DNA of 64,000 nucleotides from Eledone cirrhosa (Eukaryota), in contig OZ024759.1 in NCBI GenBank assembly GCA_964016885.1, positions 9,052,001 through 9,116,000 of the forward strand. The letters run 5' to 3'. The translations under genes and the position numbers were made by a program. The notes under the pieces were generated by a model. The model was not told the origin of the DNA. It worked only from the letters and a program-made list of their open reading frames with translations, and did no database searches. Position 1 is the stretch's first letter; the number at the start of each line of letters is the position of its first letter. This document shows, in pieces, positions 8,817 through 61,501 of this stretch.

Positions 8817-8845
<29 letters not shown>

Positions 8846-8851
<6 letters not shown>

Positions 8852-8945
8852 TGAGATTCTACAGGACTAGAACTGTTTCATTCTTTAGAAATCGATGATT
8901 TCTAAAGAATGAAACAGTTCTAGTCCTGTAGAATCTCATCTATAT
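8846..8945. repeat. Perfect ~48-bp-arm inverted repeat with 3-nt loop
   Basis: ...agaaatc(gat)gatttct...; same family as 16917-17050. Confidence 0.9.
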
Positions 8946-9021
8946 TAAAACTTTTATACTCTGCAATGTATTGAGTATCTTACTTACTGTGGTTACCTCC
9001 GATTCAACCCGGAATAACGTA

Positions 9022-9055
<34 letters not shown>

Positions 9056-11396: not shown

Positions 11397-11918
11397 TTAA
11401 AATATAAGTATTAATAAAATAGATGTTCTTTTGATCAATTACATTTTATTATACCATTTAACATCTCAGGGTATGTTAATAAAAGAGGTATTAATAAAAT
11501 AGGGTATTAATAAAATAGGTATTAATAAAATAGGGTATTAATAAAATAGATGTTCTTTTGATCAATTACATTTTATTATACCATTTAACATCTCAGGGTA
11601 TGTTAATAAAATAGGTATTAATAAAATAGGGTATTAATAAAATAGGTATTAATAAAATAGGGTATTAATAAAATAGATGTTCTTTTGATCAATTACATTT
11701 TATTATACCATTTAACATCTCAGGGTATGTTAATAAAATAGGTATTAATAAAATAGGGTATTAATAAAATAGGTATTAATAAAATAGGTATTAATAAAAT
11801 AGGGTATTAATAAAATAGGGTATTAATAAAATAGGTATTAATAAAATAGGGTATTAATAAAATAGATGTTCTTTTGATCAATTACATTTTATTATACCAT
11901 TTAACATCTCAGGGTATG
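11397..11918. repeat. Compound tandem repeat (16/17-mer plus ~70-mer) of the antisense hammerhead flank
   Basis: gtattaataaaatag(g) units and 4 copies of atagatgttcttttgatcaattacattttattata. Confidence 0.85.
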
Positions 11919-11927
11919 TCATGTATC

Positions 11928-11990
11928 ATTATATTTTGTCTGATGAGGACGTACTGTTGTACATCCGAAATATGTATAATAAAATGTAAT
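11928..11990 (+). ncRNA. Minimal type-I hammerhead ribozyme
   Basis: attatattttgt-CTGATGA-ggacgtac(tgtt)gtacatcc-GAAA-t(atgt)a-TA-ataaaatgtaat; 12-bp helix I with GU pairs. Confidence 0.8.
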
Positions 11991-12160
11991 TGATCAAAAG
12001 AACATCTATTTTATTAATACTTATATTTTATATTAATAACTCCTGAAAATAAGTTAGTACTGTTGAGTGCTTCCAATCTACTGTAAAACTCATTCTTTGA
12101 CATAATCATTGAATATTGTTTAACAACTTAATACTTATATATATCTATATATCTATATGA

Positions 12161-16110: not shown

Positions 16111-16402
16111 TATTACTACTACTATTATTATTACTGTTTCTAACACTCTCATGTATTGAGTTATTATGATGGGTATTTCTATGTTGAGAGTTATTAACTT
16201 TGTGTAATTGGAAATATTTATTAATCTTCCTCTTGTTACTGCTAGCTATGTGGTTCGCAATGTGGTAGAGTACTATCTTTTCCCTGTAATATGATTTTGT
16301 TTTTCTTGCTCTTCAATATAATGTCACTGACACTATTAATTATAATGTATCTTAATGAATGTTCTAAAGACTAGGAATGTAATTACTTGTTTTAACATTG
16401 TA

Positions 16403-16455
16403 TAAGTTCTGATGATTCCAGACATTTGTCTGGAAGAAACGATCGTCAGAAATTA
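16403..16455 (+). ncRNA. Minimal hammerhead ribozyme (helix I degenerate)
   Basis: CTGATGA-ttccagac(attt)gtctggaa-GAAA-c(gatc)g-TC; palindromic helix III. Confidence 0.75.
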
Positions 16456-16724
16456 AATGCATTAAACAAAAATTTGATTGTTAATTTGATTCAATTAATT
16501 AGACGTGAAGCAAATTATTCTTTAAAATATGTTACCAAACACTTATTCACATCTTAATTTGATTTACAATTGTTTCATTCTCATCGGACTCATCACATTC
16601 ATCTTTTCAAATGCACAAAATAATTCTAGAGATAGTTTTGTTTACATTTTATAGAACAAAAATTTCTCCAGAATTTTTTTGTACATTTGAAAAGATGAAT
16701 GTGTTGAGGTAATTATTTATAAAT

Positions 16725-16775
16725 TAATTGACCCTGATGATTCCTATGAGGATGAAACAATTGTAAATCAAATTA
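16725..16775 (+). ncRNA. Minimal hammerhead ribozyme; antisense partial copy at about 16555-16594
   Basis: CTGATGA-ttcct(atg)aggat-GAAA-c(aatt)g-TA. Confidence 0.7.
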
Positions 16776-16991
16776 TGATGTGAATAAGTCTTTGGCAACA
16801 TATTTTAATGAATATATATATACATATACACATATACACACATATATATATAAAGTTATTCCGGGTTGAATCGGAGGTAGCCACAGTAAGTAAGGTACTC
16901 AATACATAGCAGAGTATAAAAGTTTTAATATAGAAGAGCTTCTACAGGACTAGAAGTGTTTCATTCATAAGAAATCATCAGGAAGCGCTTC

Positions 16992-17030
16992 CTGATGATT
17001 TCTCACGAATGAAACAGTTCTAGTCCTGTA
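16992..17030 (+). ncRNA. Hammerhead core truncated at a palindrome centre
   Basis: CTGATGA-tttctcacgaat-GAAAC-agttcta-GTC; the 5' strand of helix I is missing; mirrored on the minus strand. Confidence 0.55.
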
Positions 17031-17075
17031 GAAGCTCTTCTATATTAAAATATATATATTATATATATATATTCT

Positions 17076-17319: not shown

Positions 17320-17701
17320 GGTATGACATTAAACTACATCCAGTGGCAAGGCTCCAGTTCGTGAGTTCAGGAGTTGTGGGGAATGTGGAGTTACCCCTTA
17401 GTTGTCATGACTCCCAGGTCTGCCCTGGCCCGGGGTGGTAGTACCTGTTAGGGCTCCATTTATGGGTTAAATAACTACCTTATTTGAGTGGTGCCGGTAA
17501 GGTATTGTCAGCCATTGAAAAGAAAAGAAAGATATATATATATATATATATATATATAGTTTAGGGATTGTAACATCAAGTTACTGTTGATTCACGAAAG
17601 TTAGGACTCGATGCGTAGTCTCCAGTTTGTACTTTAGGTTAGTACTAAGCAGACTGTAATAAATATGGACGAGATGTCAAATTATTATGAAGTTTATTCA
17701 G

Positions 17702-17790
17702 GTGTGACATGTGTTTCACAATTGATTAGCTCAAGGTTCAATCTCTATCAATCAGGCCTGACTCTGGAATCAAAAGCTCATCAAACTTCT
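17702..17790 (-). ncRNA. Degenerate hammerhead with long helix II insertion
   Basis: Minus strand TTGATGA-gc...gt-GAAA-c(acat)g-TC; related to 60116-60200. Confidence 0.5.
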
Positions 17791-18016
17791 GTTTGCTTAA
17801 TTAAGCAAAATTAGGCCTGATTGATAGAGATCAAACTTTGAGCTGATCAATCGTAAACGAGCATCACACTTGAATAAACTCATCCATACTTATTATTACT
17901 ATATATATATATATATATAGGGTGGTGGATTGGCAGTATCTGTAGAGCATCAGACAACATGCTTTGCGACATAGAGTTATGGCCCTTTACGTTCTGTATA
18001 TATATATATATATATA

Positions 18017-18405: not shown

Positions 18406-18414
18406 TACTGACTA

Positions 18415-20304
18415 ATGTTCAGAGTCATCCTCAGAGATATACTCACATATATTAGCCCACACTCTAACCACCTACCGGCAGTCATCAGAGCAGTAATCAA
18501 ATCTATCTCCTATAGGATCTCAATGCTATCAGCAAATGAGGAGATATTTATAAACCACGCACAATATTACAATAAGGCTCTCTTTGAATCTGGTTATAAA
18601 CAATCAATTTATTACATACCTAAATGCCATAACACAGCAACTCACCATAATAAACTTAACACTAGAACTAGAAATACCTTAGCTTATAGCCAGATTCGCC
18701 GGAATTTTAGCAGTAACAGCACCTATACAGGGAACTTTAATGGTGGCAGCGGCCTGCTCCCCACTCCTAGTAGCAAACTAAGAATCAACCCTAGAATAGG
18801 AATGAGAAATGGGATGACAAATAACAAACCCCCAGGTAAAAATAACCCTAGGAAGGCCCCTACCAACTCCACTAGAACCCCTAGAAGGAATAGGCCTAGA
18901 AATATCACCTGGCTTAACCCACCATTCTCATCTAATCTAACCACTAATATCCCCAATCGCTTCTTCTCTATCCTATCCCCCCCCCCCCCCAACCATAGAT
19001 ATTACAAACTCTTTAATAAAAATAACATTAAAATCTCATTCTCCACAACACCTAACCTAGCTAGCCACATCGCATTCAGTAACCATCATAAACTAAGACA
19101 GTATAACTCCCACACCGCGGTACCACCACCCCTATCAAATACACCACGCCACTACACCAATACTTACTCTAGTAGCACACCTCCCCCATCTAATCCTTCT
19201 AGCACTGACCAACCGCTTAGGTTAAACTACCCTACTCTCACTAACCGCAGAAGCAACTGCAACTGCCGGTACCCCAATGCATGCCCACTAAATGGACACT
19301 GCCTGACACCCAACATAGTCTATAGGTGCACGGTTAAAACTGCTTCGAATACCAGCTCTTATATCGGGTCTACCTCTAACCCTTTTAAGGTACGCTATAA
19401 CGCGCACTCTTTTTCCTTCCGAGACCCTAGCAACAGATGTTCGACATCGCTAGCTAGGCTCATTAAAAACCTTAAATTAAACAAAGTTCAACACTCACTA
19501 AAATGGGATATCTTAGCTAGGGCCCAACCGTTCAATGGACAAAGGAAATCTTGTGATCTCTGTGTTACGGAAGCATATTACATAACTCTATCAAGACCTC
19601 TACCAATTAACGATAGAACGGAGGTCACCATTAGCTGTCAACATCGAAGGGCTAATTCCTTCGCCAATAGAGTTTTTGACCCTACTTAGTCATGTAGCCC
19701 CATCTCTAATTGTAGCTAATAAGTTAAATTGCTATGAACAACTCGATAATTATAAGTTACCTCCCCTACATTGTCTCTCAATGAAATAATTTAAATTCTA
19801 GCACATAACTATAAAATACACACAATCTCTAATCTCTCGAGAAGTTACTTCCCCTGAAACCACCCTCTAATTAGTAAGGTAAATATGCCTTTGGCAGCCA
19901 TCTTATTACCCATAAGCAGATCTCACACAATGCAGCCTCGACAGATGAGTACTGCTTGATTATGGCTGACAGCTGATGATACAAAGGCACCATAGTAAAA
20001 ACTAATATATGGAACATTATATTATGTAACATTATTTTAATTTATATTCCTTTGAGTTCCGATGAGCCACTCTGTTTTTTTTAAATATGTTTATTATTTT
20101 CAACTGAACCAGATCAATTATGATATATAGTCATCTGATCCAGAAATATTATACGGAGTAGCGAAACAATTGTAAACGGGCATTATTATTATTAATATTA
20201 TTATTATTATTCTCTACATTCCTTACATCAAACTAAATATGTTGACAATCTTTTAATAATGTCTTCCTTGTGAAATTTCTGGTCTTGTTTTGCTTAACTA
20301 ATGA
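18415..20304 (+). mobile_element. 5'-truncated Penelope-like retroelement (probably Naiad-type): RT thumb, linker, Cys-rich motif, C-terminal GIY-YIG endonuclease, 3' pLTR region with hammerhead
   Basis: ORF 18415-19689: YISPHSNH, WLNPPFS, CNCxxxxxCPxxGxC, IVY...YIGST...FKxRYxxH, CDLC...E...NxRxE...CxH. Hammerhead at 20056-20177; ends in (TA)n. Confidence 0.88.
20056..20177 (+). ncRNA. Penelope pLTR hammerhead, CCGAUGA core variant with extended helix II
   Basis: gtt-CCGATGA-gccactctgt...acggagtagc-GAAA-c(aatt)g-TA-aac. Confidence 0.7.
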
Positions 20305-21123: not shown

Positions 21124-21200
21124 ATATGAGTTAGGTTTAGTAAATTAAACAAATTAGATTCTTTCCACCTCAATCTGATTCTTCTGTCATCCAGTTACTC

Positions 21201-24200
21201 TCAGGTAGAATGTATCAGTTGTTAGACTGTCAGGTAGAATATATCAGTTGTTAGACTGTCAGGTAGAATATATCAGTTGTTAGACTGTCAGGTAGAATAT
21301 ATCAGTTGTTAGACTGTCAGGTAGGATATATCAGTTGTTAGACTGTCAGGTAGGATATATCAGTTATTAGACTGTCAGGTAGAATATATCAGTTGTTAGA
21401 CTGTCAGGTAGGATGTATCAGTTGTTAGACTGTCAGGTAGAATGTATCAGTTGTTAGACTGTCAGGTAGGATATATCAGTTGTTAGACTGTCAGGTAGGA
21501 TGTATCAGTTGTTAGACTGTCAGGTAGAATATATCAGTTGTTAGACTGTCAGGTAGGATGTATCAGTTGTTAGACTGTCAGGTAGGATATATCAGTTGTT
21601 AGACTGTCAGGTAGGATGTATCAGTTGTTAGACTGTCAGGTAGGATATATCAGTTGTTAGACTGTCAGGTAGGATGTATCAGTTGTTAGACTGTCAGGTA
21701 GAATGTATCAGTTGTTAGACTGTCAGGTAGGATATATCAGTTGTTAGACTGTCAGGTAGGATATATCAGTTGTTAGACAGTCAGGTAGAATATATCAGTT
21801 GTTAGACTGTCAGGTAGGATATATCAGTTGTTAGACTGTCAGGTAGGATGTATCAGTTGTTAGACTGTCAGGTAGGATATATCAGTTGTTAGACTGTCAG
21901 GTAGGATGTATCAGTTGTTAGACTGTCAGGTAGAATATATCAGTTGTTAGACTGTCAGGTAGAATATATCAGTTGTTAGACTGTCAGGTAGAATGTATCA
22001 GTTGTTAGACTGTCAGGTAGGATATATCAGTTGTTAGACTGTCAGGTAGGATATATCAGTTGTTAGACTGTCAGGTAGAATGTATCAGTTGTTAGACTGT
22101 CAGGTAGGATGTATCAGTTGTTAGACTGTCAGGTAGAATATATCAGTTGTTAGACTGTCAGGTAGGATATATCAGTTGTTAGACAGTCAGGTAGGATATA
22201 TCAGTTGTTAGACTGTCAGGTAGGATATATCAGTTGTTAGACTGTCAGGTAGAATATATCAGTTGTTAGACTGTCAGGTAGGATATATCAGTTGTTAGAC
22301 TGTCAGGTAGGATATATCAGTTGTTAGACTGTCAGGTAGGATATATCAGTTGTTAGACTGTCAGGTAGGATATATCAGACTGTCAGGTAGAATGTATCAG
22401 TTGTTAGACTGTCAGGTAGGATATATCAGTTGTTAGACTGTCAGGTAGAATATATCAGTTGTTAGACTGTCAGGTAGAATGTATCAGTTGTTAGACTGTC
22501 AGGTAGAATATATCAGTTGTTAGACTGTCAGGTAGGATATATCAGTTGTTAGACTGTCAGGTAGGATATATCAGTTGTTAGACTGTCAGGTAGAATATAT
22601 CAGTTGTTAGACTGTCAGGTAGAATATATCAGTTGTTAGACTGTCAGGTAGGATATATCAGTTGTTAGACTGTCAGGTAGAATATATCAGTTGTTAGACT
22701 GTCAGGTAGGATATATCAGTTGTTAGACTGTCAGGTAGGATATATCAGTTGTTAGACTGTCAGGTAGAATATATCAGTTGTTAGACTGTCAGGTAGAATA
22801 TATCAGTTGTTAGACTGTCAGGTAGGATATATCAGTTGTTAGACTGTCAGGTAGAATATATCAGTTGTTAGACTGTCAGGTAGAATATATCAGTTGTTAG
22901 ACTGTCAGGTAGAATGTATCAGTTGTTAGACTGTCAGGTAGAATGTATCAGTTGTTAGACTGTCAGGTAGAATATATCAGTTGTTAGACTGTCAGGTAGA
23001 ATGTATCAGTTGTTAGACTGTCAGGTAGAATGTATCAGTTGTTAGACTGTCAGGTAGAATATATCAGTTGTTAGACTGTCAGGTAGAATATATCAGTTGT
23101 TAGACTGTCAGGTAGGATATATCAGTTGTTAGACTGTCAGGTAGAATATATCAGTTGTTAGACTGTCAGGTAGAATGTATCAGTTGTTAGACTGTCAGGT
23201 AGAATGTATCAGTTGTTAGACTGTCAGGTAGAATATATCAGTTGTTAGACTGTCAGGTAGAATGTATCAGTTGTTAGACTGTCAGGTAGAATATATCAGT
23301 TGTTAGACTGTCAGGTAGGATATATCAGTTTTTAGACTGTCAGGTAGAATGTATCAGTTGTTAGACTGTCAGGTAGAATGTATCAGTTGTTAGACTGTCA
23401 GGTAGAATATATCAGTTGTTAAACTGTCAGGTAGAATATATCAGTTGTTAGACTGTCAGGTAGAATATATCAGTTGTTAGACTGTCAGGTAGAATGTATC
23501 AGTTGTTAGACTGTCAGGTAGAATGTATCAGTTGTTAGACTGTCAGGTAGAATATATCAGTTGTTAGACTGTCAGGTAGGATATATCAGTTGTTAGACTG
23601 TCAGGTAGAATATATCAGTTGTTAGACTGTCAGGTAGAATATATCAGTTGTTAGACTGTCAGGTAGAATGTATCAGTTGTTAGACTGTCAGGTAGAATGT
23701 ATCAGTTGTTAGACTGTCAGGTAGAATATATCAGTTGTTAGACTGTCAGGTAGAATGTATCAGTTGTTAGACTGTCAGGTAGAATATATCAGTTGTTAGA
23801 CCGTCAGGTAGAATATATCAGTTGTTAGACTGTCAGGTAGAATGTATCAGTTGTTAGACTGTCAGGTAGAATGTATCAGTTGTTAGACTGTCAGGTAGAA
23901 TATATCAGTTGTTAGACTGTCAGGTAGGATATATCAGTTGTTAGACTGTCAGGTAGAATATATCAGTTGTTAGACTGTCAGGTAGAATATATCAGTTGTT
24001 AGACTGTCAGGTAGGATATATCAGTTGTTAGACTGTCAGGTAGGATGTATCAGTTGTTAGACTGTCAGGTAGAATATATCAGTTGTTAGACTGTCAGGTA
24101 GGATATATCAGTTGTTAGACTGTCAGGTAGAATATATCAGTTGTTAGACTGTCAGGTAGAATATATCAGTTGTTAGACTGTCAGGTAGGATATATCAGTT

Positions 24201-27200
24201 GTTAGACTGTCAGGTAGAATGTATCAGTTGTTAGACTGTCAGGTAGAATATATCAATTGTTAGACTGTCAGGTAGAATATATCAGTTGTTAGACTGTCAG
24301 GTAGGATGTATCAGTTGTTAGACTGTCAGGTAGAATATATCAGTTGTTAGACTGTCAGGTAGGATATATCAGTTGTTAGACTGTCAGGTAGAATGTATCA
24401 ATTGTTAGACTGTCAGGTAGGATATATCAGTTGTTAGACTGTCAGGTAGAATATATCAGTTGTTAGACTGTCAGGTAGAATATATCAGTTGTTAGACTGT
24501 CAGGTAGAATATATCAGTTGTTAGACTGTCAGGTAGGATATATCAGTTGTTAGACTGTCAGGTAGAATATATCAGTTGTTAGACTGTCAGGTAGGATATA
24601 TCAGTTGTTAGACTGTCAGGTAGGATATATCAGTTGTTAGACTGTCAGGTAGGATGTATCAGTTGTTAGACTGTCAGGTAGGATATATCAGTTGTTAGAC
24701 TGTCAGGTAGAATGTATCAGTTGTTAGACTGTCAGGTAGGATATATCAGTTGTTAGACTGTCAGGTAGGATGTATCAGTTGTTAGACTGTCAGGTAGGAT
24801 ATATCAGTTGTTAGACTGTCAGGTAGGATATATCAGTTGTTAGACTGTCAGGTAGGATATATCAGTTGTTAGACTGTCAGGTAGGATATATCAGTTGTTA
24901 GACTGTCAGGTAGGATATATCAGTTGTTAGACTGTCAGGTAGAATATATCAGTTGTTAGACTGTCAGGTAGGATATATCAGTTGTTAGACTGTCAGGTAG
25001 GATATATCAGTTGTTAGACTGTCAGGTAGGATATATCAGTTGTTAGACTGTCAGGTAGGATATATCAGTTGTTAGACTGTCAGGTAGAATGTATCAGTTG
25101 TTAGACTGTCAGGTAGGATGTATCAGTTGTTAGACTGTCAGGTAGAATGTATCAGTTGTTAGACTGTCAGGTAGGATATATCAGTTGTTAGACTGTCAGG
25201 TAGGATATATCAGTTGTTAGACTGTCAGGTAGGATATATCAGTTGTTAGACTGTCAGGTAGAATATATCAGTTGTTAGACTGTCAGGTAGAATATATCAG
25301 TTGTTAGACTGTCAGGTAGGATGTAGCAGTTGTTAGACTGTCAGGTAGTATGTATCAGTTGTTAGACTGTCAGGTAGAATATATCAGTTGTTAGACTGTC
25401 AGGTAGAATGTATCAGTTGTTAGACTGTCAGGTAGTATGTATCAGTTGTTAGACTGTCAGGTAGAATATATCAGTTGTTAGACTGTCAGGTAGAATGTAT
25501 CAGTTGTTAGACTGTCAGGTAGTATGTATCAGTTGTTAGACTGTCAGGTAGAATATATCAGTTGTTAGACTGTCAGGTAGAATATATCAGTTGTTAGACT
25601 GTCAGGTAGGATATATCAGTTGTTAGACTGTCAGGTAGAATATATCAGTTGTTAGACTGTCAGGTAGAATATATCAGTTGTTAGACTGTCAGGTAGGATA
25701 TATCAGTTGTTAGACTGTCAGGTAGGATATATCAGTTGTTAGACTGTCAGGTAGAATATATCAGTTGTTAGACTGTCAGGTAGAATATATCAGTTGTTAG
25801 ACTGTCAGGTAGAATGTATCAGTTGTTAGACTGTCAGGTAGGATATATCAGTTGTTAGACTGTCAGGTAGAATATATCAGTTGTTAGACTGTCAGGTAGG
25901 ATATATCAGTTGTTAGACTGTCAGGTAGGATATATCAGTTGTTAGACTGTCAGGTAGAATATATCAGTTGTTAGACTGTCAGGTAGAATATATCAGTTGT
26001 TAGACTGTCAGGTAGAATATATCAGTTGTTAGACTGTCAGGTAGGATATATCAGTTGTTAGACTGTCAGGTAGGATATATCAGTTGTTAGACTGTCAGGT
26101 AGAATATATCAGTTGTTAGACTGTCAGGTAGAATATATCAGTTGTTAGACTGTCAGGTAGGATATATCAGTTGTTAGACTGTCAGGTAGAATATATCAGT
26201 TGTTAGACTGTCAGGTAGGATATATCAGTTGTTAGACTGTCAGGTAGGATATATCAGTTATTAGACTGTCAGGTAGAATATATCAGTTGTTAGACTGTCA
26301 GGTAGGATGTATCAGTTGTTAGACTGTCAGGTAGAATGTATCAGTTGTTAGACTGTCAGGTAGGATATATCAGTTGTTAGACTGTCAGGTAGGATGTATC
26401 AGTTGTTAGACTGTCAGGTAGAATATATCAGTTGTTAGACTGTCAGGTAGGATGTATCAGTTGTTAGACTGTCAGGTAGGATATATCAGTTGTTAGACTG
26501 TCAGGTAGGATGTATCAGTTGTTAGACTGTCAGGTAGGATATATCAGTTGTTAGACTGTCAGGTAGGATGTATCAGTTGTTAGACTGTCAGGTAGAATGT
26601 ATCAGTTGTTAGACTGTCAGGTAGGATATATCAGTTGTTAGACTGTCAGGTAGGATATATCAGTTGTTAGACAGTCAGGTAGAATATATCAGTTGTTAGA
26701 CTGTCAGGTAGGATATATCAGTTGTTAGACTGTCAGGTAGGATGTATCAGTTGTTAGACTGTCAGGTAGGATATATCAGTTGTTAGACTGTCAGGTAGGA
26801 TGTATCAGTTGTTAGACTGTCAGGTAGAATATATCAGTTGTTAGACTGTCAGGTAGAATATATCAGTTGTTAGACTGTCAGGTAGAATGTATCAGTTGTT
26901 AGACTGTCAGGTAGGATATATCAGTTGTTAGACTGTCAGGTAGGATATATCAGTTGTTAGACTGTCAGGTAGAATGTATCAGTTGTTAGACTGTCAGGTA
27001 GGATGTATCAGTTGTTAGACTGTCAGGTAGAATATATCAGTTGTTAGACTGTCAGGTAGGATATATCAGTTGTTAGACAGTCAGGTAGGATATATCAGTT
27101 GTTAGACTGTCAGGTAGGATATATCAGTTGTTAGACTGTCAGGTAGAATATATCAGTTGTTAGACTGTCAGGTAGGATATATCAGTTGTTAGACTGTCAG

Positions 27201-30200
27201 GTAGGATATATCAGTTGTTAGACTGTCAGGTAGGATATATCAGTTGTTAGACTGTCAGGTAGGATATATCAGACTGTCAGGTAGAATGTATCAGTTGTTA
27301 GACTGTCAGGTAGGATATATCAGTTGTTAGACTGTCAGGTAGAATATATCAGTTGTTAGACTGTCAGGTAGAATGTATCAGTTGTTAGACTGTCAGGTAG
27401 AATGTATCAGTTGTTAGACTGTCAGGTAGAATATATCAGTTGTTAGACTGTCAGGTAGAATATATCAGTTGTTAGACTGTCAGGTAGGATATATCAGTTG
27501 TTAGACTGTCAGGTAGAATATATCAGTTGTTAGACTGTCAGGTAGGATATATCAGTTGTTAGACTGTCAGGTAGAATATATCAGTTGTTAGACTGTCAGG
27601 TAGAATATATCAGTTGTTAGACTGTCAGGTAGGATATATCAGTTGTTAGACTGTCAGGTAGAATATATCAGTTGTTAGACTGTCAGGTAGAATATATCAG
27701 TTGTTAGACTGTCAGGTAGAATGTATCAGTTGTTAGACTGTCAGGTAGAATGTATCAGTTGTTAGACTGTCAGGTAGAATATATCAGTTGTTAGACTGTC
27801 AGGTAGAATGTATCAGTTGTTAGACTGTCAGGTAGAATGTATCAGTTGTTAGACTGTCAGGTAGAATATATCAGTTGTTAGACTGTCAGGTAGAATATAT
27901 CAGTTGTTAGACTGTCAGGTAGGATATATCAGTTGTTAGACTGTCAGGTAGAATATATCAGTTGTTAGACTGTCAGGTAGAATGTATCAGTTGTTAGACT
28001 GTCAGGTAGAATGTATCAGTTGTTAGACTGTCAGGTAGAATATATCAGTTGTTAGACTGTCAGGTAGAATATATCAGTTGTTAGACTGTCAGGTAGAATA
28101 TATCAGTTGTTAGACTGTCAGGTAGAATGTATCAGTTGTTAGACTGTCAGGTAGAATGTATCAGTTGTTAGACTGTCAGGTAGAATATATCAGTTGTTAG
28201 ACTGTCAGGTAGGATATATCAGTTGTTAGACTGTCAGGTAGAATATATCAGTTGTTAGACTGTCAGGTAGAATATATCAGTTGTTAGACTGTCAGGTAGA
28301 ATGTATCAGTTGTTAGACTGTCAGGTAGAATGTATCAGTTGTTAGACTGTCAGGTAGAATATATCAGTTGTTAGACTGTCAGGTAGAATGTATCAGTTGT
28401 TAGACTGTCAGGTAGAATATATCAGTTGTTAGACTGTCAGGTAGGATATATCAGTTGTTAGACTGTCAGGTAGAATATATCAGTTGTTAGACCGTCAGGT
28501 AGAATATATCAGTTGTTAGACTGTCAGGTAGAATGTATCAGTTGTTAGACTGTCAGGTAGAATGTATCAGTTGTTAGACTGTCAGGTAGAATATATCAGT
28601 TGTTAGACTGTCAGGTAGGATATATCAGTTGTTAGACTGTCAGGTAGAATATATCAGTTGTTAGACTGTCAGGTAGAATATATCAGTTGTTAGACTGTCA
28701 GGTAGGATATATCAGTTGTTAGACTGTCAGGTAGGATGTATCAGTTGTTAGACTGTCAGGTAGAATATATCAGTTGTTAGACTGTCAGGTAGGATATATC
28801 AGTTGTTAGACTGTCAGGTAGGATATATCAGTTGTTAGACTGTCAGGTAGGATATATCAGTTGTTAGACTGTCAGGTAGGATATATCAGTTGTTAGACTG
28901 TCAGGTAGGATATATCAGTTGTTAGACTGTCAGGTAGAATATATCAGTTGTTAGACTGTCAGGTAGGATATATCAGTTGTTAGACTGTCAGGTAGGATAT
29001 ATCAGTTGTTAGACTGTCAGGTAGGATATATCAGTTGTTAGACTGTCAGGTAGAATATATCAGTTGTTAGACTGTCAGGTAGAATATATCAGTTGTTAGA
29101 CTGTCAGGTAGAATATATCAGTTGTTAGACTGTCAGGTAGGATATATCAGTTGTTAGACTGTCAGGTAGAATGTATCAGTTGTTAGACTGTCAGGTAGAA
29201 TATATCAATTGTTAGACTGTCAGGTAGAATATATCAGTTGTTAGACTGTCAGGTAGGATGTATCAGTTGTTAGACTGTCAGGTAGAATATATCAGTTGTT
29301 AGACTGTCAGGTAGGATATATCAGTTGTTAGACTGTCAGGTAGAATGTATCAATTGTTAGACTGTCAGGTAGGATATATCAGTTGTTAGACTGTCAGGTA
29401 GAATATATCAGTTGTTAGACTGTCAGGTAGAATATATCAGTTGTTAGACTGTCAGGTAGAATATATCAGTTGTTAGACTGTCAGGTAGGATATATCAGTT
29501 GTTAGACTGTCAGGTAGAATATATCAGTTGTTAGACTGTCAGGTAGGATATATCAGTTGTTAGACTGTCAGGTAGGATATATCAGTTGTTAGACTGTCAG
29601 GTAGGATGTATCAGTTGTTAGACTGTCAGGTAGGATATATCAGTTGTTAGACTGTCAGGTAGAATGTATCAGTTGTTAGACTGTCAGGTAGGATATATCA
29701 GTTGTTAGACTGTCAGGTAGGATGTATCAGTTGTTAGACTGTCAGGTAGGATATATCAGTTGTTAGACTGTCAGGTAGGATATATCAGTTGTTAGACTGT
29801 CAGGTAGGATATATCAGTTGTTAGACTGTCAGGTAGGATATATCAGTTGTTAGACTGTCAGGTAGGATATATCAGTTGTTAGACTGTCAGGTAGAATATA
29901 TCAGTTGTTAGACTGTCAGGTAGGATATATCAGTTGTTAGACTGTCAGGTAGGATATATCAGTTGTTAGACTGTCAGGTAGGATATATCAGTTGTTAGAC
30001 TGTCAGGTAGGATATATCAGTTGTTAGACTGTCAGGTAGAATGTATCAGTTGTTAGACTGTCAGGTAGGATGTATCAGTTGTTAGACTGTCAGGTAGAAT
30101 GTATCAGTTGTTAGACTGTCAGGTAGGATATATCAGTTGTTAGACTGTCAGGTAGGATATATCAGTTGTTAGACTGTCAGGTAGGATATATCAGTTGTTA

Positions 30201-33200
30201 GACTGTCAGGTAGAATATATCAGTTGTTAGACTGTCAGGTAGAATATATCAGTTGTTAGACTGTCAGGTAGGATGTAGCAGTTGTTAGACTGTCAGGTAG
30301 TATGTATCAGTTGTTAGACTGTCAGGTAGAATATATCAGTTGTTAGACTGTCAGGTAGAATGTATCAGTTGTTAGACTGTCAGGTAGTATGTATCAGTTG
30401 TTAGACTGTCAGGTAGAATATATCAGTTGTTAGACTGTCAGGTAGAATATATCAGTTGTTAGACTGTCAGGTAGGATATATCAGTTGTTAGACTGTCAGG
30501 TAGAATATATCAGTTGTTAGACTGTCAGGTAGAATATATCAGTTGTTAGACTGTCAGGTAGGATATATCAGTTGTTAGACTGTCAGGTAGGATATATCAG
30601 TTGTTAGACTGTCAGGTAGAATATATCAGTTGTTAGACTGTCAGGTAGAATGTATCAGTTGTTAGACTGTCAGGTAGAATGTATCAGTTGTTAGACTGTC
30701 AGGTAGAATATATCAGTTGTTAGACTGTCAGGTAGAATGTATCAGTTGTTAGACTGTCAGGTAGGATATATCAGTTGTTAGACTGTCAGGTAGAATATAT
30801 CAGTTGTTAGACTGTCAGGTAGGATATATCAGTTGTTAGACTGTCAGGTAGGATATATCAGTTGTTAGACTGTCAGGTAGAATATATCAGTTGTTAGACT
30901 GTCAGGTAGAATATATCAGTTGTTAGACTGTTAGGTAGAATATATCAGTTGTTAGACTGTCAGGTAGGATATATCAGTTGTTAGACTGTCAGGTAGGATA
31001 TATCAGTTGTTAGACTGTCAGGTAGAATATATCAGTTGTTAGACTGTCAGGTAGAATATATCAGTTGTTAGACTGTCAGGTAGGATATATCAGTTGTTAG
31101 ACTGTCAGGTAGGATATATCAGTTGTTAGACTGTCAGGTAGAATGTATCAGTTGTTAGACTGTCAGGTAGGATATATCAGTTGTTAGACTGTCAGGTAGA
31201 ATGTATCAGTTGTTAGACTGTCAGGTAGGATATATCAGTTGTTAGACTGTCAGGTAGAATATATCAGTTGTTAGACTGTCAGGTAGGATATATCAGTTGT
31301 TAGACTGTCAGGTAGAATATATCAGTTGTTAGACTGTCAGGTAGGATATATCAGTTGTTAGACTGTCAGGTAGGATATATCAGTTGTTAGACTGTCAGGT
31401 AGAATATATCAGTTGTTAGACTGTCAGGTAGAATATATCAGTTGTTAGACTGTCAGGTAGGATATATCAGTTGTTAGACTGTCAGGTAGGATATATCAGT
31501 TGTTAGACTGTCAGGTAGAATGTATCAGTTGTTAGACTGTCAGGTAGGATATATCAGTTGTTAGACTGTCAGGTAGAATGTATCAGTTGTTAGACTGTCA
31601 GGTAGGATATATCAGTTGTTAGACTGTCAGGTAGAATATATCAGTTGTTAGACTGTCAGGTAGGATATATCAGTTGTTAGACTGTCAGGTAGAATATATC
31701 AGTTGTTAGACTGTCAGGTAGGATATATCAGTTGTTAGACTGTCAGGTAGTATGTATCAGTTGTTAGACTGTCAGGTAGAATGTATCAGTTGTTAGACTG
31801 TCAGGTAGGATATATCAGTTGTTAGACTGTCAGGTAGAATGTATCAGTTGTTAGACTGTCAGGTAGGATATATCAGTTGTTAGACTGTCAGGTAGAATGT
31901 ATCAGTTGTTAGACTGTCAGGTAGGATATATCAGTTGTTAGACTGTCAGGTAGAATATATCAGTTGTTAGACTGTCAGGTAGGATATATCAGTTGTTAGA
32001 CTGTCAGGTAGAATGTATCAGTTGTTAGACTGTCAGGTAGGATATATCAGTTGTTAGACTGTCAGGTAGGATATATCAGTTGTTAGACTGTCAGGTAGGA
32101 TATATCAGTTGTTAGACTGTCAGGTAGGATATATCAGTTGTTAGACTGTCAGGTAGAATATATCAGTTGTTAGACTGTCAGGTAGGATATATCAGTTGTT
32201 AGACTGTCAGGTAGGATATATCAGTTGTTAGACTGTCAGGTAGAATATATCAGTTGTTAGATTGTCAGGTAGGATATATCAGTTGTTAGACTGTCAGGTA
32301 GGATATATCAGTTGTTAGACTGTCAGGTAGAATGTATCAGTTGTTAGACTGTCAGGTAGGATATATCAGTTGTTAGACTGTCAGGTAGAATATATCAGTT
32401 GTTAGATTGTCAGGTAGGATATATCAGTTGTTAGACTGTCAGGTAGGATATATCAGTTGTTAGACTGTCAGGTAGAATGTATCAGTTGTTAGACTGTCAG
32501 GTAGGATATATCAGTTGTTAGACTGTCAGGTAGAATATATCAGTTGTTAGACTGTCAGGTAGGATATATCAGTTGTTAGACTGTCAGGTAGAATATATCA
32601 GTTGTTAGACTGTCAGGTAGGATGTATCAGTTGTTAGACTGTCAGGTAGAATGTATCAGTTGTTAGACTGTCAGGTAGGATATATCAGTTGTTAGACTGT
32701 CAGGTAGAATATATCAGTTGTTAGACTGTCAGGTAGGATATATCAGTTGTTAGACTGTCAGGTAGGATGTATCAGTTGTTAGACTGTCAGGTAGGATATA
32801 TCAGTTGTTAGACTGTCAGGTAGAATATATCAGTTGTTAGACTGTCAGGTAGAATATATCAGTTGTTAGACTGTCAGGTAGGATGTATCAGTTGTTAGAC
32901 TGTCAGGTAGGATATATCAGTTGTTAGACTGTCAGGTAGAATATATCAGTTGTTAGACTGTCAGGTAGAATATATCAGTTGTTAGACTGTCAGGTAGGAT
33001 ATATCAGTTGTTAGACTGTCAGGTAGAATATATCAGTTGTTAGACTGTCAGGTAGAATATATCAGTTGTTAGACTGTCAGGTAGGATATATCAGTTGTTA
33101 GACTGTCAGGTAGAATATATCAGTTGTTAGACTGTCAGGTAGAATATATCAGTTGTTAGACTGTCAGGTAGGATGTATCAGTTGTTAGACTGTCAGGTAG

Positions 33201-34131
33201 AATATATCAGTTGTTAGACTGTCAGGTAGAATATATCAGTTGTTAGACTGTCAGGTAGAATATATCAGTTGTTAGACTGTCAGGTAGAATATATCAGTTG
33301 TTAGACTGTCAGGTAGAATATATCAGTTGTTAGACTGTCAGGTAGGATGTATCAGTTGTTAGACTGTCAGGTAGAATATATCAGTTGTTAGACTGTCAGG
33401 TAGAATATATCAGTTGTTAGACTGTCAGGTAGAATATATCAGTTGTTAGACTGTCAGGTAGAATATATCAGTTGTTAGACTGTCAGGTAGGATGTATCAG
33501 TTGTTAGACTGTCAGGTAGAATATATCAGTTGTTAGACTGTCAGGTAGAATATATCAGTTGTTAGACTGTCAGGTAGAATATATCAGTTGTTAGACTGTC
33601 AGGTAGGATATATCAGTTGTTAGACTGTCAGGTAGAATATATCAGTTGTTAGACTGTCAGGTAGAATATATCAGTTGTTAGACTGTCAGGTAGGATATAT
33701 CAGTTGTTAGACTGTCAGGTAGAATATATCAGTTGTTAGACTGTCAGGTAGAATATATCAGTTGTTAGACTGTCAGGTAGAATATATCAGTTGTTAGACT
33801 GTCAGGTAGGATATATCAGTTGTTAGACTGTCAGGTAGGATATATCAGTTGTTAGACCGTCAGGTAGAATATATCAGTTGTTAGACTGTCAGGTAGAATA
33901 TATCAGTTGTTAGACTGTCAGGTAGGATATATCAGTTGTTAGACTGTCAGGTAGAATATATCAGTTGTTAGACTGTCAGGTAGAATATATCAGTTGTTAG
34001 ACTGTCAGGTAGAATATATCAGTTGTTAGACTGTCAGGTAGGATATATCAGTTGTTAGACTGTCAGGTAGGATATATCAGTTGTTAGACCGTCAGGTAGG
34101 ATATATCAGTTGTTAGACTGTCAGGTAGAAT
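21201..34131. repeat. 29-bp minisatellite array, ~12.9 kb, ~445 units
   Basis: Unit ctgtcaggtagRatRtatcagttgttaga. Confidence 0.98.
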
Positions 34132-34649: not shown

Positions 34650-36160
34650 GAAACAGTCAGCAAGGTTAGAATTAACAACGAATATAGTGAAGAGTTTAGC
34701 GTAAAAGTTGGCGTCCATCAGGGCTCTGTTCTCAGCCCACTACTATTTATTATTGCCCTTCAGGCTATAACAGAGGAGTTCAAGACAGGCTGCCCATGGG
34801 AACTCCTATACGCAGACGACCTGACACTCATAGCGGAATCAATGGCCGAGCTAGAGAAGAAATTCCAAACATGGAAGCACGGCCTAGAGTCAAAAGGACT
34901 TAAAATTAACCTGGCTAAGACCAAAGTACTAGTTTGTAGGAAAGAAAACAAGGCGGCGGTCCCTTCTGGGAAATGGTCGTGCTCGGTGTGTAGGAAAGGC
35001 GTAGGTAGAAACTCCATTTTATGTCCTAAATGCAAAGTATGGGTGCATAAAAGATGTAGTGGGATCACAGGTAAGCTAACTAAGAACATAGATTTTACAT
35101 GTGGCCGGTGCTCTGGTGCAATAAGTAGCAGCAAGTGCCCACAAACTACTAGCTCTTTCAATTGCGCAGAGGGTTCTATAGAAATAGTGGACAGCTTCCG
35201 TTACCTGGGCGATAAAATCAGCAGTGGGGGAGGGTGCTCTGAAAGTACTGTAGCTAGAGTCAGAACTGGTTGGAAAAAGTTCAGAGAGCTTATACCACTA
35301 TTAGCTGCTAAAGGGTTCTCACTAAAAATGAAAGGCAGGTTGTACGATGCCTGCATACGAACAGCAATGCTGCATGGCAGTGAGACCTGGGCATTGTGTG
35401 CAGAGGATATACGCAGACTAGAGAGGAACGAAGCTTGCATGCTCCGCTGGATGTGTAACAGTAATATACGTGAACGGCAAAGCATAAACGAACTAAGGAA
35501 AAAATTAGAGATAAGAGGGATCAGATGTTGTTTACTCGAGAGAAGGCTACGTTGGTATGGACACGTGATGCGCATGAAAGTCGATAGCTGTATAACAAAG
35601 TGCAGGGCAATAAAGATAGACGGTAGTCACGGAATAGGCAGACCTAGAAAAACCTGGGACGAGCTGATAAACTCCGACATCACACACTTACACCTCTCCA
35701 AGACAATGTCACTGGACCGAGACCTTTGGCGGTACTCAGTAACAGAGAAGACCCGCCTTACCTAAATATATAGTAAAACCTACTCCAGCCAGTAGGCATC
35801 TCTAACAAAATACACCCCGTCCCACCACCACCACCCCCACCCGATCCACACCACCCCGTTCTATGTAAAGTTATGTTGGTGCCGCGCCATCGAGGCCGAA
35901 ACAAATGAGATCGTGTAGGTGTCACGACAAAAAAACACACAGTCCACGCTGTAATGTGGCCGTGTAGGCAACACGGTAAAAACCTCCCAGACCCACACTG
36001 TAAATGTGGTTGGTGTTAGGAAGGGCATCCAACTGTAGAAAACCTGCCAGACAGTCCTATGCGAGCAAGACAATCACTCTTGCCTCAAGTGGGACTACCC
36101 CCGTCCAAACCCATGCAAGCGTGGAACACGGACGTTAAACGTTGATGATGATGATGATGA
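34650..36160 (+). mobile_element. RTE LINE 3' half, ORF intact over 370 aa, with PHD-like Cys/His insert
   Basis: GVHQGSVLSP, YADD, FRYLG, RRLRWYGH; 3' UTR and (GAT)n tail. Confidence 0.93.
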
Positions 36161-36379
36161 TATATATATATATATATATGTAGGAGGTGAGTTTTATTGT
36201 AGCACAATAAAGCAATGCAAATATCGGATAAGTAGCACTCAACAGTTTATAGGACTGGAGTATAAATAATATAAAATCAACAGATGGTTAAAAGAGTTCC
36301 ATGTATTTTATTATGCGCCTTTCAAAATTTAACACTTCACTGCTCGCAAGTGTTTTTTAAGCTTCATATCATGTCTCCC

Positions 36380-36450
36380 TATTTTATCTGATGAGAACGC
36401 AAATATCATGCCATGATGATATTTGTTTTTGAAATGCGCATAATAAAATA
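36380..36450 (+). ncRNA. Minimal hammerhead ribozyme
   Basis: tattttat-CTGATGA-gaacgcaaatatcat...atgatatttgttttt-GAAA-t(gcgc)a-TA-ataaaata; perfect 8-bp helix I. Confidence 0.85.
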
Positions 36451-36480
36451 CATGGAACTCTTTTAACCATCTTTTGATTT

Positions 36481-36515
<35 letters not shown>

Positions 36516-36518
<3 letters not shown>

Positions 36519-36893
36519 TCATCATCATCATCAACGTTTAACGTCCGTGTTCCACGTTTGCATGGGTTTGGACGGGTGTTTTCCCACTTGAGGCAAGAGT
36601 GATTATCTTGCTCGCATAGGACTGTCTGGCGGGTTTTCTACAGCTGGATGCCCTTCCTAACACCAACCACATTTACAGTGTGGGTCTGGGAGGTTTTTAC
36701 CGTGTTGCCTACACGGCCACATTACAGCGTGGACTGTGTGTTTTTTTTGACGTGACACCTACACGACCTCATTTGTTTCGGCCTCGATGTTGTGGGACCA
36801 ACATAACTTTACATTGAAAGGGGTGTGGATGGGGTGGGGTGGGTGGGACGGGGGTGTATTTTGTTAGAGATGCCTACTGACTGTAGTAGGTTT
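36516..36893 (-). mobile_element. RTE 3' UTR copy, inverted relative to 35772-36160
   Basis: Reverse complement of the neighbouring LINE 3' UTR; (CAT)n tail. Confidence 0.88.
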
Positions 36894-36911
36894 TTTATAT
36901 ACATTATATAC

Positions 36912-36946
<35 letters not shown>

Positions 36947-36959
36947 ACTTCCTTTTCAG

Positions 36960-37211
36960 CTGGTGATTTGTACACTACCAACAGTCTTGACTATGAAACT
37001 AATCCTACGTACAATGTGGAAGTGATGGCATTTGATGTGGGCGAACCTCAGCAGAATTCCACCAACTCAATAACTATTAATGTCGTAGACGTTTGTGATG
37101 ACCACTTCCAACTAATGCCTGCATTCTATGTTGCTAATAACTTCCCTGTTGACCGTACAATGTTCTCTTTGACCAGTTCCACAGACCCAACTAACTTCAG
37201 CCTAAAAGATG
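36960..37211 (+). CDS. Cadherin exon G (GDLYTTNSLDYE...AFDVGEP...SLKD)
   Basis: ttttcag|CT ... G|gtaagt. LDYE and AxDxGxP motifs. Phase 1/1. Confidence 0.92.
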
Positions 37212-37243
37212 GTAAGTCAAGCTTTATAGATTATCATCCTCTT

Positions 37244-37521
37244 CACCACCACCACCACCACCACTATCATCATCACCACCACTACCACCACCACACCACC
37301 ACCACACCACCACCACACCACCACCACAACACCACCACCACAACACCACCACACCAACACCACCACACCACCACCACCACACCACCACCACCACCACCAC
37401 CACACCACCACCACACCACCACCACCACCACACCACCACCACCACCACACCACACCACCACCACAACACCACCACCACCACCACCACACCACCACACCAC
37501 CATCACACCACTACCACCACC
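37244..37521. repeat. (CAC)n microsatellite
   Basis: Direct inspection. Confidence 0.9.
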
Positions 37522-37853
37522 GCTGGTCAATCAATGATAAACATTTCTTGCCAGATAAATTAACTATGGAGATATAAAAGATACAGAAGCAAAAACCAAC
37601 CCAAACCAAACAATGAGGTTGTTTTATTATTATTTCTGGAAATATTATAACAATATGACCCTCCCCAAATATAACAACATACATATATATTTATATATAT
37701 ATATAGATTTTGAGTTTATGTTGGTTGTATACCAACACCTCAGTATGCAGGCTGGAGCACTCGACGAAGTGCGCAGGTTGGTTTGGTTACTCCGGAGTAG
37801 TGTAAAATAAAGTTAAATAAAAGTCAAATGATTAAAATTTAGCTTCGTTTATT

Positions 37854-37908
37854 ACTGCTATATATATTTCAGTGACAGCCATCTTTGGCTGTGGCCTCTT
37901 CAGGCAGT
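37854..37908 (-). ncRNA. Minimal hammerhead ribozyme (left arm of fold-back)
   Basis: Reverse complement of 38241-38295. Confidence 0.8.
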
Positions 37909-38240
37909 TTGAATTAGTATGGTATAGACAAGTACATATGTTGTTTAGGTGTATGATATTGTCAATACTCTGATATGCCCAGTTCCTTGTCGGGTTGTTA
38001 TTTCACTGAGGAACTGGAGTCATATGAATTCAAACAAACGAATTTTCGTGTCACAGGTCCCCTTCTCCTCTCATTGGTCAGTTGAAGAGGACCTGTGACA
38101 CGAAAATTCGTTTGTTTGAATTCATATGACTCCAGTTCCCCAGTGAAATAACAACCCGACAAGGAACTGGGCATATCAGAGTATTGACAATATCATACAC
38201 CTAAACAACATATGTACTTGTCTATACCATACTAATTCAA

Positions 38241-38295
38241 ACTGCCTGAAGAGGTCACAGCCAAAGATGGCTGTCACTGAAATATATATAGCAGT
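38241..38295 (+). ncRNA. Minimal hammerhead ribozyme
   Basis: actgc-CTGAAGA-ggtcacagcca(aaga)tggctgtcact-GAAA-t(atat)a-TA-gcagt. Confidence 0.85.
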
Positions 38296-38339
38296 AATAA
38301 ACGAAGCTAAATTTTAATCATTTGACTTTTATTTAACTT

Positions 38340-38383
<44 letters not shown>

Positions 38384-38430
38384 TCAAAGATATTAAATAA
38401 ATGGAAACTATATTTATAAAACCATATTTA

Positions 38431-38487
38431 TTCTATTATATATATTTCAAGGGTACCAAAACTTTGGTACGCTCTCATCAGATAAAA
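38431..38487 (-). ncRNA. Minimal hammerhead ribozyme (left arm)
   Basis: Reverse complement of 38621-38677. Confidence 0.8.
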
Positions 38488-38620
38488 TACAAAGTTCGTT
38501 TTATAAATATTGATATAACCAAGAAAAAATACCTTAACGGTTCAAGTTTTTCCAGGAAAAACTTGAACCGTTGGGGTATTTTTTCTTGGTTATGTCAACA
38601 TTTATAAAACAAACTTTGTA

Positions 38621-38677
38621 ATTTATCTGATGAGAGCGTACCAAAGTTTTGGTACCCTTGAAATATATATAATAGAA
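38621..38677 (+). ncRNA. Minimal hammerhead ribozyme
   Basis: tttat-CTGATGA-gagcgtaccaaa(gt)tttggtaccctt-GAAA-t(atat)a-TA-ataga. Confidence 0.82.
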
Positions 38678-38831
38678 TAAATATGGTTTTATAAATATAG
38701 TTTCCATTTATTTAATATCATTGAATATATACTCCAGAAAACTTGTCGAGTGCTTTGAATAAGTCATAAACATTTATATTTGTTGAATTACCAACAAATT
38801 GAATTACAGCGTGGACTGTGTGTTTTTTTGT

Positions 38832-59957: not shown

Positions 59958-60115
59958 TATATATATCCAGGGTGTGTAGCGTGAAGTTACCTGTAGGTTC
60001 ACCCAGGTGAGCACTCCATGTTTAGGTTTACGTCAGTAGCGAGGTGTAGAGCTAAACAGGGTGTAATATAATAATACAAGGACGATTTGTTAAGCCTTCA
60101 TTATGTTTATTGATT

Positions 60116-60200
60116 GGTGACGCGCGTTTCGCTATTGATCAGCTCAAGGTTCGATCTGTATCGACCTGCCCCGACTCTGGAATCAAAAGCTCGTCGGACC
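60116..60200 (-). ncRNA. Hammerhead with CCGACGA core and long helix II
   Basis: Minus strand ggt-CCGACGA-gc...gc-GAAA-c(gcgc)g-TC-acc. Confidence 0.7.
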
Positions 60201-60329
60201 TCTGTCATTACAACAGTAGAGGTCCAATGAGCTTTTGATTGCAGAGTCGGGTCAGGTCAATACAGATCAAACCTTGTTGCGTCACCAATCAATAAACATA
60301 ATGAAGGCTTAACAAATCGTCCTTGTATT

Positions 60330-60509: not shown

Positions 60510-60894
60510 GGGAAGTTATAGTTCACTTGAAGCATTGTGTAATGAGGTATAAACGTTTGTATTTGTAAAGCCAAAACAATGCAGGTATGGACATAGAATA
60601 TAAATGCAAATGCAAAAGATATTGTTGACAATTAGTCTTTTATCTTAAATTTATTTAAATGTCCTTAATTTTTGAGATAATATCTCTTCTTCGGAGGGAA
60701 GTAAAGCAATTAAACCAGCATTCTAAATAGCTTGCCAAGTCATGCATGACTTGGCAAACTATTTAGAACACTGGTTTTTCGAATATTAATAATAACATTC
60801 GATTTGTTTGCAATTATGCAAACAAGCCTCAATTTTATAGCCATGTCAGTAGAATGAACCTTTCATTGTTGCTCTTGTGTTGGCAGTTGAACAG

Positions 60895-60942
60895 AACTGC
60901 AGACACTAATGTTTCTGGGCATCACTCTTCATCAGTACAGTT
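60895..60942 (-). ncRNA. Hammerhead ribozyme (left arm)
   Basis: Reverse complement of 61320-61367; helix II mutated. Confidence 0.6.
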
Positions 60943-61319
60943 CATTGTTCACCTGCGAAACTATCAGAGCTAGTGAAAATATATGCTATTTTCAAAAATA
61001 CACAGTGACTGATTGGCCTGATTTGCATATTGGGAGACTGGCTGATCAGTCAGATCAAATGTTATTATTAATATTCAAAAAACTCAGATTACATTTATTG
61101 TATTCAGCCATGTAGAGTGAAATTTTCTTTTTTATTTGAATTTGGCAAAGCCAGCCATTTATCGCTCGTATACAGGAAACTGATCAGCCAGTCTGCTAAT
61201 ATGCAAATCTGACTGATCAGCCAGTCTGCTAATATGCAAATCAGGCTGATCAGTCACTGTGTATTTTTGAAAATAGCATATATTTTCACTAGCTCTGACA
61301 GTTTGGCAGGTGAACAGTG

Positions 61320-61367
61320 AGCTGTACTGATGAAGGGTGATACCCAGAAACATTAGTGTCTGCAGTT
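61320..61367 (+). ncRNA. Type-I hammerhead ribozyme
   Basis: agctgta-CTGATGA-agggt(gat)accca-GAAA-cat(ta)gtg-TC-tgcagtt. Confidence 0.78.
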
Positions 61368-61501
61368 CTGTTCACATGCCAACACAAGAGCAACAATGAA
61401 AGGTTCATTCTACTGACATGGCTATAAAATTGAGGTTTGTTTGCATAATTGCAAACAAATCAAATGTTATTATTAATATTTGAAAAACTCAGATTACATT
61501 T

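Follow-up and report, generated by a model that had tools for sequence, protein, structure and literature searches.

The fold-back inserts in this stretch of Eledone cirrhosa DNA raise the question of why their two arms end differently, one carrying a tail and the other stopping short of it. The window (64,000 nt; assembly GCA_964016885.1, contig OZ024759.1, forward-strand positions 9,052,001 to 9,116,000) consists of intronic sequence from a cadherin gene, the genome of this animal being 3.0 Gb in size. The three fold-backs under study, E1 (36178-36488), E2 (37706-38346) and E3 (38377-38804), were shown to be head-to-head, 5′-truncated inserts in (TA)n from three Hydra-type Penelope-like retroelement (PLE) families. 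Their long arm runs through a bulged hairpin (hairpin 1) into the tail, and their short arm ends at or just ahead of the corresponding position. The explanation we favour, and consider probable, is that both cut strands of the (TA)n target prime reverse transcription, one ahead of each of two hairpins, and that the two complementary DNAs (cDNAs) are joined head-to-head.

Position of the arm ends relative to two hairpins

An earlier note on this DNA had compared, for six fold-backs, the limit of the inverted repeat with the edge of hairpin 1, and its coordinates proved good to 0-4 nt, with an ambiguity in E3 and a degenerate hairpin in E6. Four nucleotides separate the limit from the first base of the hairpin in both E2 (37803 vs. 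37798; noted as 37803 and 37799) and E1 (36266 vs. 36261; noted as about 36265 and 36262). The distance is 8 nt in E4 (12030 vs. 12039) and 7 nt in E5 (16923 vs. 16915), where the value of about 16920 given before was off by 3 nt. For E3 the match reaches 38731, the first base of the hairpin itself; its last 7 nt (ATATATA) possibly belong to the target, and the limit noted previously (38727) falls inside this ambiguous range. The spacing was also seen in E6 (60073 vs. approximately 60064), but here the short arm enters another repeat instead of (TA)n and the degenerate hairpin was unmatched by the motif. A seventh case, E9 (8845/8945), stops 12 nt ahead of the hairpin at 8958. The further claim that one arm carries the full tail held as regards one tailed and one short arm, but the tail of E3 is incomplete: it is cut at approximately 38804 and its final ~12 nt are replaced by a fragment of another repeat, also seen at 36494-36901.

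Mapping of short-arm endpoints in genomic copies of E2, the check proposed in that note, showed that they are clustered and not random, with 43 of 53 at one position and 52 of 53 no more than 11 nt from the hairpin. The sample comprised the first 100 of 5,462 genomic places of the E2 anchor, counted by eye; 46 continue into the tail, 53 stop and one could not be assigned. A scripted count of the first 30 places gave 15 in each class, and the exact E2 short junction occurs 1,489 times genome-wide. Where stopped arms enter (TA)n, the gap to the hairpin was 4 nt in 10/12 arms of E2 and 11/14 of E1, 2-9 nt in 17/17 of E3 and 3-5 nt in 8/11 of E4, with 18 more arms left unassigned in this count. 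The E2 sample and the gap counts thus bear out that the short arm starts at a fixed point just 5′ of the bulged hairpin, and that the hairpin marks the boundary between the pseudo-long terminal repeat (pLTR) and the tail.

Support for the predicted hairpins is comparative. Hairpin 1 is found in all five families with an ACUC/GAGU stem, a 2-nt 3′ bulge (UU, UC or UA) and a variable upper stem, whose pairs vary (C-G/U-A; A-U/G-C/G-U/C-G) with pairing kept in 85% vs. 70% in shuffles; none of 2000 shuffles reached 85%, a figure that is not a probability since the 32 sequences are related. A second hairpin (hairpin 2, GCUC/GAGC), with the basal pair altered on both sides relative to hairpin 1 (A-U to G-C), lies 3-7 nt behind the long-arm end in read-through copies of E1, E2 and E3. 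It was found in 60 read-through copies of E2 in the genome; for E3 there were 116 matches, and among the 100 listed two were not hairpin 2 and a few were mutated. The long-arm ends of E2 stop at one site in 100 of the 100 listed, from approximately 1,882 matches to a pattern whose final letter left out the read-through copies.

With a second hairpin behind the long end, the tail is seen to be the stretch that separates two equivalent sites, and the long end lies within the element. The tail (about 65-105 nt) lies in the 5′ untranslated region (UTR), ~50 nt ahead of the ATG, so the earlier placement of the long-arm start at the RNA 3′ end was not borne out; priming on a read-through (UA)n end is possible in some copies. 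The 5′ parts of read-through E2 copies reach beyond 1.4 kb, which fits tandem or circular templates. Five read-through copies (L274, L275, L290, L294, L295) jump from the 5′ UTR or open reading frame (ORF) back to the 3′ UTR or pLTR, and are internally deleted or mini-tandem derivatives in which both hairpins are kept. The 3′ strand of both hairpins also holds a conserved, nearly palindromic AGYGCU that continues 3 nt past the stem, through which hairpins 1 and 2 could possibly pair in an alternative or dimer structure, as suggested by folding.

Short repeats at the ends bear on whether these are starts or stops. We observed (CT)n at 424 E2 long ends (~1,882 ends were counted separately), where the template reads UCU; several haplotypes carry it, and none of the short junctions examined does. 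Two of 17 E1 long ends carry (CA)n where the template reads ACA, and 4 of 96 E2 short ends carry an extra TTTTA. Template-matched stutter would be the expected trace of slippage at the initiation of reverse transcription, and since it matches each family's own template, the ends look like reverse transcriptase (RT) starts.

Pairing of the arms and the origin of the inverted copy

Among 20 head-to-head E2 pairs resolved by eye (one more could not be assigned), 17 were long+short, 3 long+long and none short+short, a coupling with P=0.0013 against a coin. A larger set comprised 71 E2 inserts with two arms whose inner ends are adjacent; 68 were long+short, 4 of these with a full unit as the long arm; the loci were chosen in several ways, and these and the following proportions are not genome estimates. 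Of the other 64 inserts, 17 have a short arm that exceeds the long one in 5′ reach by more than 25 nt, 14 show the reverse, and in 33 the two lie within 25 nt of each other. One segment is copied twice in 59 of the 64, and the arms of the remaining 5 have no shared sequence. E1 of the window belongs to the short-arm-further cases, with ~100 nt more 5′ reach in its short arm. As a folded-back tailed strand cannot give a longer tail-less partner, at least this class requires two primings. Within an insert, the two arms carry the same minor allele at 160 of 187 informative sites (86%) vs. 11% in shuffled pairs, and so derive from the same RNA or source locus.

Although the inner (5′) junctions vary, as had been stated, their positions are non-random: of 194 E2 arms, 50 have their start 220-229 nt upstream of the short end. 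In the window this cluster lies at ~38022-38031, where two palindromes overlap immediately 5′ of a third ACTC..GAGT hairpin, whose bulge is larger; few arms start at a comparable palindrome located at -139. An RNA 5′ end and a joining hot spot are both candidates for the cluster. The idea that the RNA has its only 5′ end at a transcription start located 223 nt upstream was not supported: in read-through copies (60 genome-wide; 29 out of 30 loci could be mapped), the 5′ parts have starts scattered between +60 and beyond -1,400, and none falls at 220-229.

From arm reach, coupling and stutter we infer that both target strands prime, as the earlier note had proposed. In the course we consider probable, the GIY-YIG domain would cut both strands of (TA)n and the element's protein would bind both hairpins, so that each cut target strand primes at one of them. 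The target 3′ ends may pair with UA/AU bases ~3-9 nt 5′ of hairpin 2 for the long arm and of hairpin 1 for the short arm; stutter on the first template bases would be frequent at priming, and both cDNAs would be extended toward the RNA 5′ end. Their template would probably be the same RNA molecule, copied by strand displacement, or two units of one tandem or circular transcript. The cDNA 3′ ends would then be joined by microhomology and host repair would finish the insert, the tail being the stretch of RNA bounded by the two starts. Binding of the protein, its action as a dimer and a single RNA molecule as template are parts that we infer. More tentatively, and with somewhat less than even confidence, we suggest that the duplicated bulged hairpin is the template-positioning element of Hydra-clade PLE proteins, like the telomerase template boundary: a dimer would sit on both hairpins of one RNA, and each subunit would take one cut DNA end and stutter on a 2-5-nt template window, the same RNA being copied twice. 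If true, this would be programmed, structure-directed twin priming that accounts for PLE tails and inverted ends. The reverse transcriptases of PLEs are the closest relatives of telomerase.

Several observations weigh against priming at two hairpins. Ends of the E5 group are looser (5-22 nt, n=7 arms). The hairpins alone are weak (about -2 to -8 kcal/mol) and in longer fragments another fold has the minimum energy in 5 of 6 cases. Hairpin 2 is missing from most genomic 3′ ends (60 read-through vs. 1,882 ended E2 copies) and can therefore act in the priming of long arms only if the RNA is tandem or circular; priming without it would be open to read-through transcripts with a (UA)n end. The same start sites were used on both strands by PAc in vitro, and the one-site-per-strand rule was not shown there (PMC11167929). 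The 33 near-symmetric inserts are compatible with fold-back too. Finally, both arms of one insert (L053:1350-1744) carry ~30 differences, nearly all A>G on one strand; it looks like a re-copied, edited fold-back RNA, so that not every insert is primary.

Fold-back by self-priming, for which the passages covered of PMC3846280 can be cited, would have a cDNA or antisense RNA fold at a palindrome, copy itself and stop at a protein-bound hairpin. It suits the junctions that are symmetric within 25 nt, several of which lie on palindromes (e.g., 225 nt upstream), the alleles shared between arms and the E3 inverted-repeat centre of 1 nt; near-equal arm lengths fit it as they fit two cDNAs reaching one RNA end. 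It does not explain short arms that reach beyond their long arms, by up to 2.6 kb (L222) and with E1 among them, or the 5 inserts whose arms share no sequence, and the stutter at short ends fits a start and not a stop. We consider it unlikely as the general route, although part of the symmetric class may have this origin. The ends could instead be nicks in a DNA intermediate at a fixed distance from the hairpins, and the passages covered of PMC8557442 do attribute the PLE tail to endonuclease-mediated resolution. Such a cut is compatible with the fixed register; the D. virilis endonuclease required the tail for recognition (as cited in the part consulted of PMC11167929), and 5′ ends accumulate just 5′ of the third ACTC..GAGT hairpin. 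Yet no 3′ ends occur at that third site among the loci examined, the junctions carry template-matched stutter, and the starts observed in vitro coincide with the tail edges (PMC11167929), so that we regard resolution as improbable here.

Later loss of a tail would produce the same asymmetry if both arms were tailed at insertion and one tail was deleted via microhomology that the AT-rich stretch shares with the flanking (TA)n. The short end does always lie in an AT-rich stretch with TA microhomology, and 3 of the 20 pairs are long+long. However, short+short is absent next to 17 long+short pairs, the asymmetry is already present in inserts with 99-100% identical arms, and most E1 ends skip the TAT adjoining the hairpin, 11 of 14 stopping 4 nt earlier. 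We find this account very hard to believe. At the E2-E3 locus the four contig sets compared held other family copies only and no empty allele, and target-site duplications are unreadable in (TA)n.

Identity of the elements and relation to known systems

E1, E2 and E3 gave no mutual match in blastn. Their hammerhead cores face outward in a pattern search, which makes each arm a sense-strand 3′ end and the arms head-to-head. Genomic E2 copies led to a full-length parent (locus L072) with, in order, an inverted short arm, a partial tail continuing into the 5′ UTR, an 892-aa ORF, the 3′ UTR, the pLTR and the tail. The single ORF, contiguous with the E2 pLTR, carries YRDD (RT) and a C-terminal VY..YIG (GIY-YIG); these domains were assigned by motif, a Pfam search of the ORF giving no RT or GIY-YIG match and a PDB search no real match. 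Full-length parents of the same type exist for E1 and E3, and the RT regions of E1 and E2 are 50% identical. The E2 protein has RWK, DKT, YRDD, a CxCx5C linker, VY..YIG, CxxC and CxH. RWK is replaced by RWT in E1 and RWR in E3; all three have DKT instead of DKG, the CxCx5C linker and CxxC + CxH near the C-terminus, and lack CCHH. According to the part consulted of PMC8557442 (section 11), RWK, DKT, the CxCx5C linker and CxxC/CxH are Hydra-clade marks. By eye, the RT motifs resemble Hydra-1_Obim.

As in endonuclease-containing (EN+) PLEs, pLTRs, partial tandems, an inverted 5′-truncated copy and a one-sided tail are all present. Type I hammerhead cores (CTGAnGA-stem II-GAAA) were found by pattern in the pLTRs of E1-E5, and their cleavage is predicted; a scan with Rfam returned no hammerhead match and only sub-threshold, miRNA-like matches to the fold-backs. 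In a sample partly selected for (TA)n, this repeat follows the E2 short end in 87 of 96 cases and the long end in 82 of 98. The unit length of 4,123 bp in E2 and ~3.7 kb in E1 exceeds the <3 kb "generally" given for the Hydra clade, a soft trait. Exact anchors number at least 5,462 for E2, 15,924 for E1, 40,644 for E3, 2,295 for E4 and 35,028 for the E5 group (mixed families); the counts come from exact pattern searches, a DNA search with the pLTR core having missed most young copies. An origin as a miniature inverted-repeat transposable element (MITE) or other DNA transposon was rejected, because the ends are asymmetric, the length runs from <0.3 to >5 kb and the arms are 3′ ends of RT-coding elements. 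The analysis also shows that many MITE-like palindromes of the Eledone cirrhosa genome are retro-insertions.

Inserts of EN+ PLEs are described in the passages covered of PMC3846280 and PMC8557442 as having an inverted 5′-truncated pLTR and a one-sided 30-40-bp tail, and their construction is called undefined in the latter. The present inserts share with them the head-to-head inverted copy, the tail on one end, partial tandems and AT-rich targets; they differ in tail length (about 65-105 nt vs. 30-40 bp), and the published explanation is self-priming or endonuclease resolution, with no RNA structure named at the tail edges in these passages. An inverted copy with a one-sided tail is a known PLE trait, and two internal start sites are published as well: Poseidon_Ac cuts and extends both target strands in vitro, with two internal starts bounding the tail (PMC11167929). 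The AT-rich target is common to both systems, and so, under the mechanism proposed here, would be the two internal starts, the cutting and extension of both strands and a dimer, predicted for Poseidon. Poseidon_Ac nevertheless belongs to another clade, its tail lies inside the ORF instead of the 5′ UTR, and its starts lie in one AC-rich stem-loop, the text giving no repeated hairpin and no one-site-per-strand rule.

With the Hydra clade, as presented in the parts consulted of PMC8557442 (section 11, supplement), the elements share RWK, DKT, the CxCx5C linker, CxxC/CxH, the hammerhead and the (TA)n target, and by eye the Hydra-2_Amil consensus has this GCTC-stem-TT-GAGC hairpin at its end as well. 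Differences are units of 3.7-4.1 kb vs. <3 kb, RWT (E1) and RWR (E3), and a hairpin that is unmentioned in those passages. Circles were proposed in the part consulted of PMC4209133, and the passages covered of a 2026 retrozyme preprint do not address insertion ends. In the text of the openly accessible literature on twin priming, hairpins or stem-loops in PLEs, we found no duplicated hairpin, fixed register, long+short coupling, stutter or one-site-per-strand rule.

The term twin priming, used in the earlier note, holds here in that both strands appear to prime, but not in the sense of L1. Twin priming of L1, reportedly described by Ostertag and Kazazian in 2001, is said to start at the poly(A) and at a variable internal site and to invert without duplicating. 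Inversion of the 5′ part and microhomology at the inner joint are shared, and priming by both target strands, proposed for our elements, would be a further common trait. In the present inserts, by contrast, each of the two end points has a fixed position within the element unit, and non-overlapping cDNAs are seen in only 5 of 64, the other 59 duplicating one segment. Given a conserved, short RNA element whose distance to each of the two ends is fixed, and thousands of young copies in these families, exact mutations can be tested and three published or plausible models told apart.

Coordinates and neighbouring features

Features of the fold-back inserts and a related reading frame in the window
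Feature	Positions	Strand	Details
E1 long arm	36178..36326	-	3′ part of pLTR and ~88-nt tail; terminates in (TA)n
E1 hairpin 1	36237..36261	-	ACTC stem, 2-nt bulge, upper stem
E1 short arm	36327..36488	+	hammerhead core 36388-36434; end 4 nt ahead of hairpin position
E2 long arm	37706..38083	-	hammerhead core 37903-37867; ~96-nt tail
E2 distal tail hairpin	37719..37737	-	
E2 hairpin 1	37759..37798	-	
E2 short arm	38084..38346	+	hammerhead core 38246-38282; end 4 nt ahead of hairpin position, then (TA)n
E3 short arm	38377..38553	-	hammerhead core 38481-38445
E3 long arm	38555..38804	+	hammerhead core 38627-38663; hairpin 1 (38731-38751); distal hairpin
E4	11398..12135		short arm (-) at 11398-11454; tandem amplification inside; hammerhead (11940) and hairpin 1 (12039) in the long arm (+)
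E5	16853..17050		long arm (-) with hairpin 1 at 16915; short arm (+) to 17050; fold centre within hammerhead
E9 (E5's family)	8845..9023		short arm (-); long arm (+) with hairpin 1 at 8958
E6	59967..60329		older, diverged insert; long arm (-); short arm (+) to 60329; hairpin degenerate
5′-truncated ORF, further family of PLE kind	18412..19689	+	CxCx5C linker, GIY-YIG-like VY..YIG, CxxC, CxH

The product of the truncated ORF is 33% identical to the E2 protein. In E4 the short arm has been amplified to a local tandem array of ~127-bp units (11455-11900). Two further old fold-backs with a hammerhead lie at 16400-16814 and 17596-17900, with a degenerate or indistinct tail structure. E1 is flanked by two tail-to-tail 3′ ends of long interspersed nuclear elements (35767-36182 and 36494-36901; 92% identical), of which the left copy continues an RT ORF that ends at 35765. 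At 60774-61488 there is an inverted repeat of 282 bp (95%) around a 151-nt spacer, in which no hammerhead core was seen, and approximately 13 kb of the window (21195-34000) consists of a 29-bp tandem repeat whose copies are ~96% identical.
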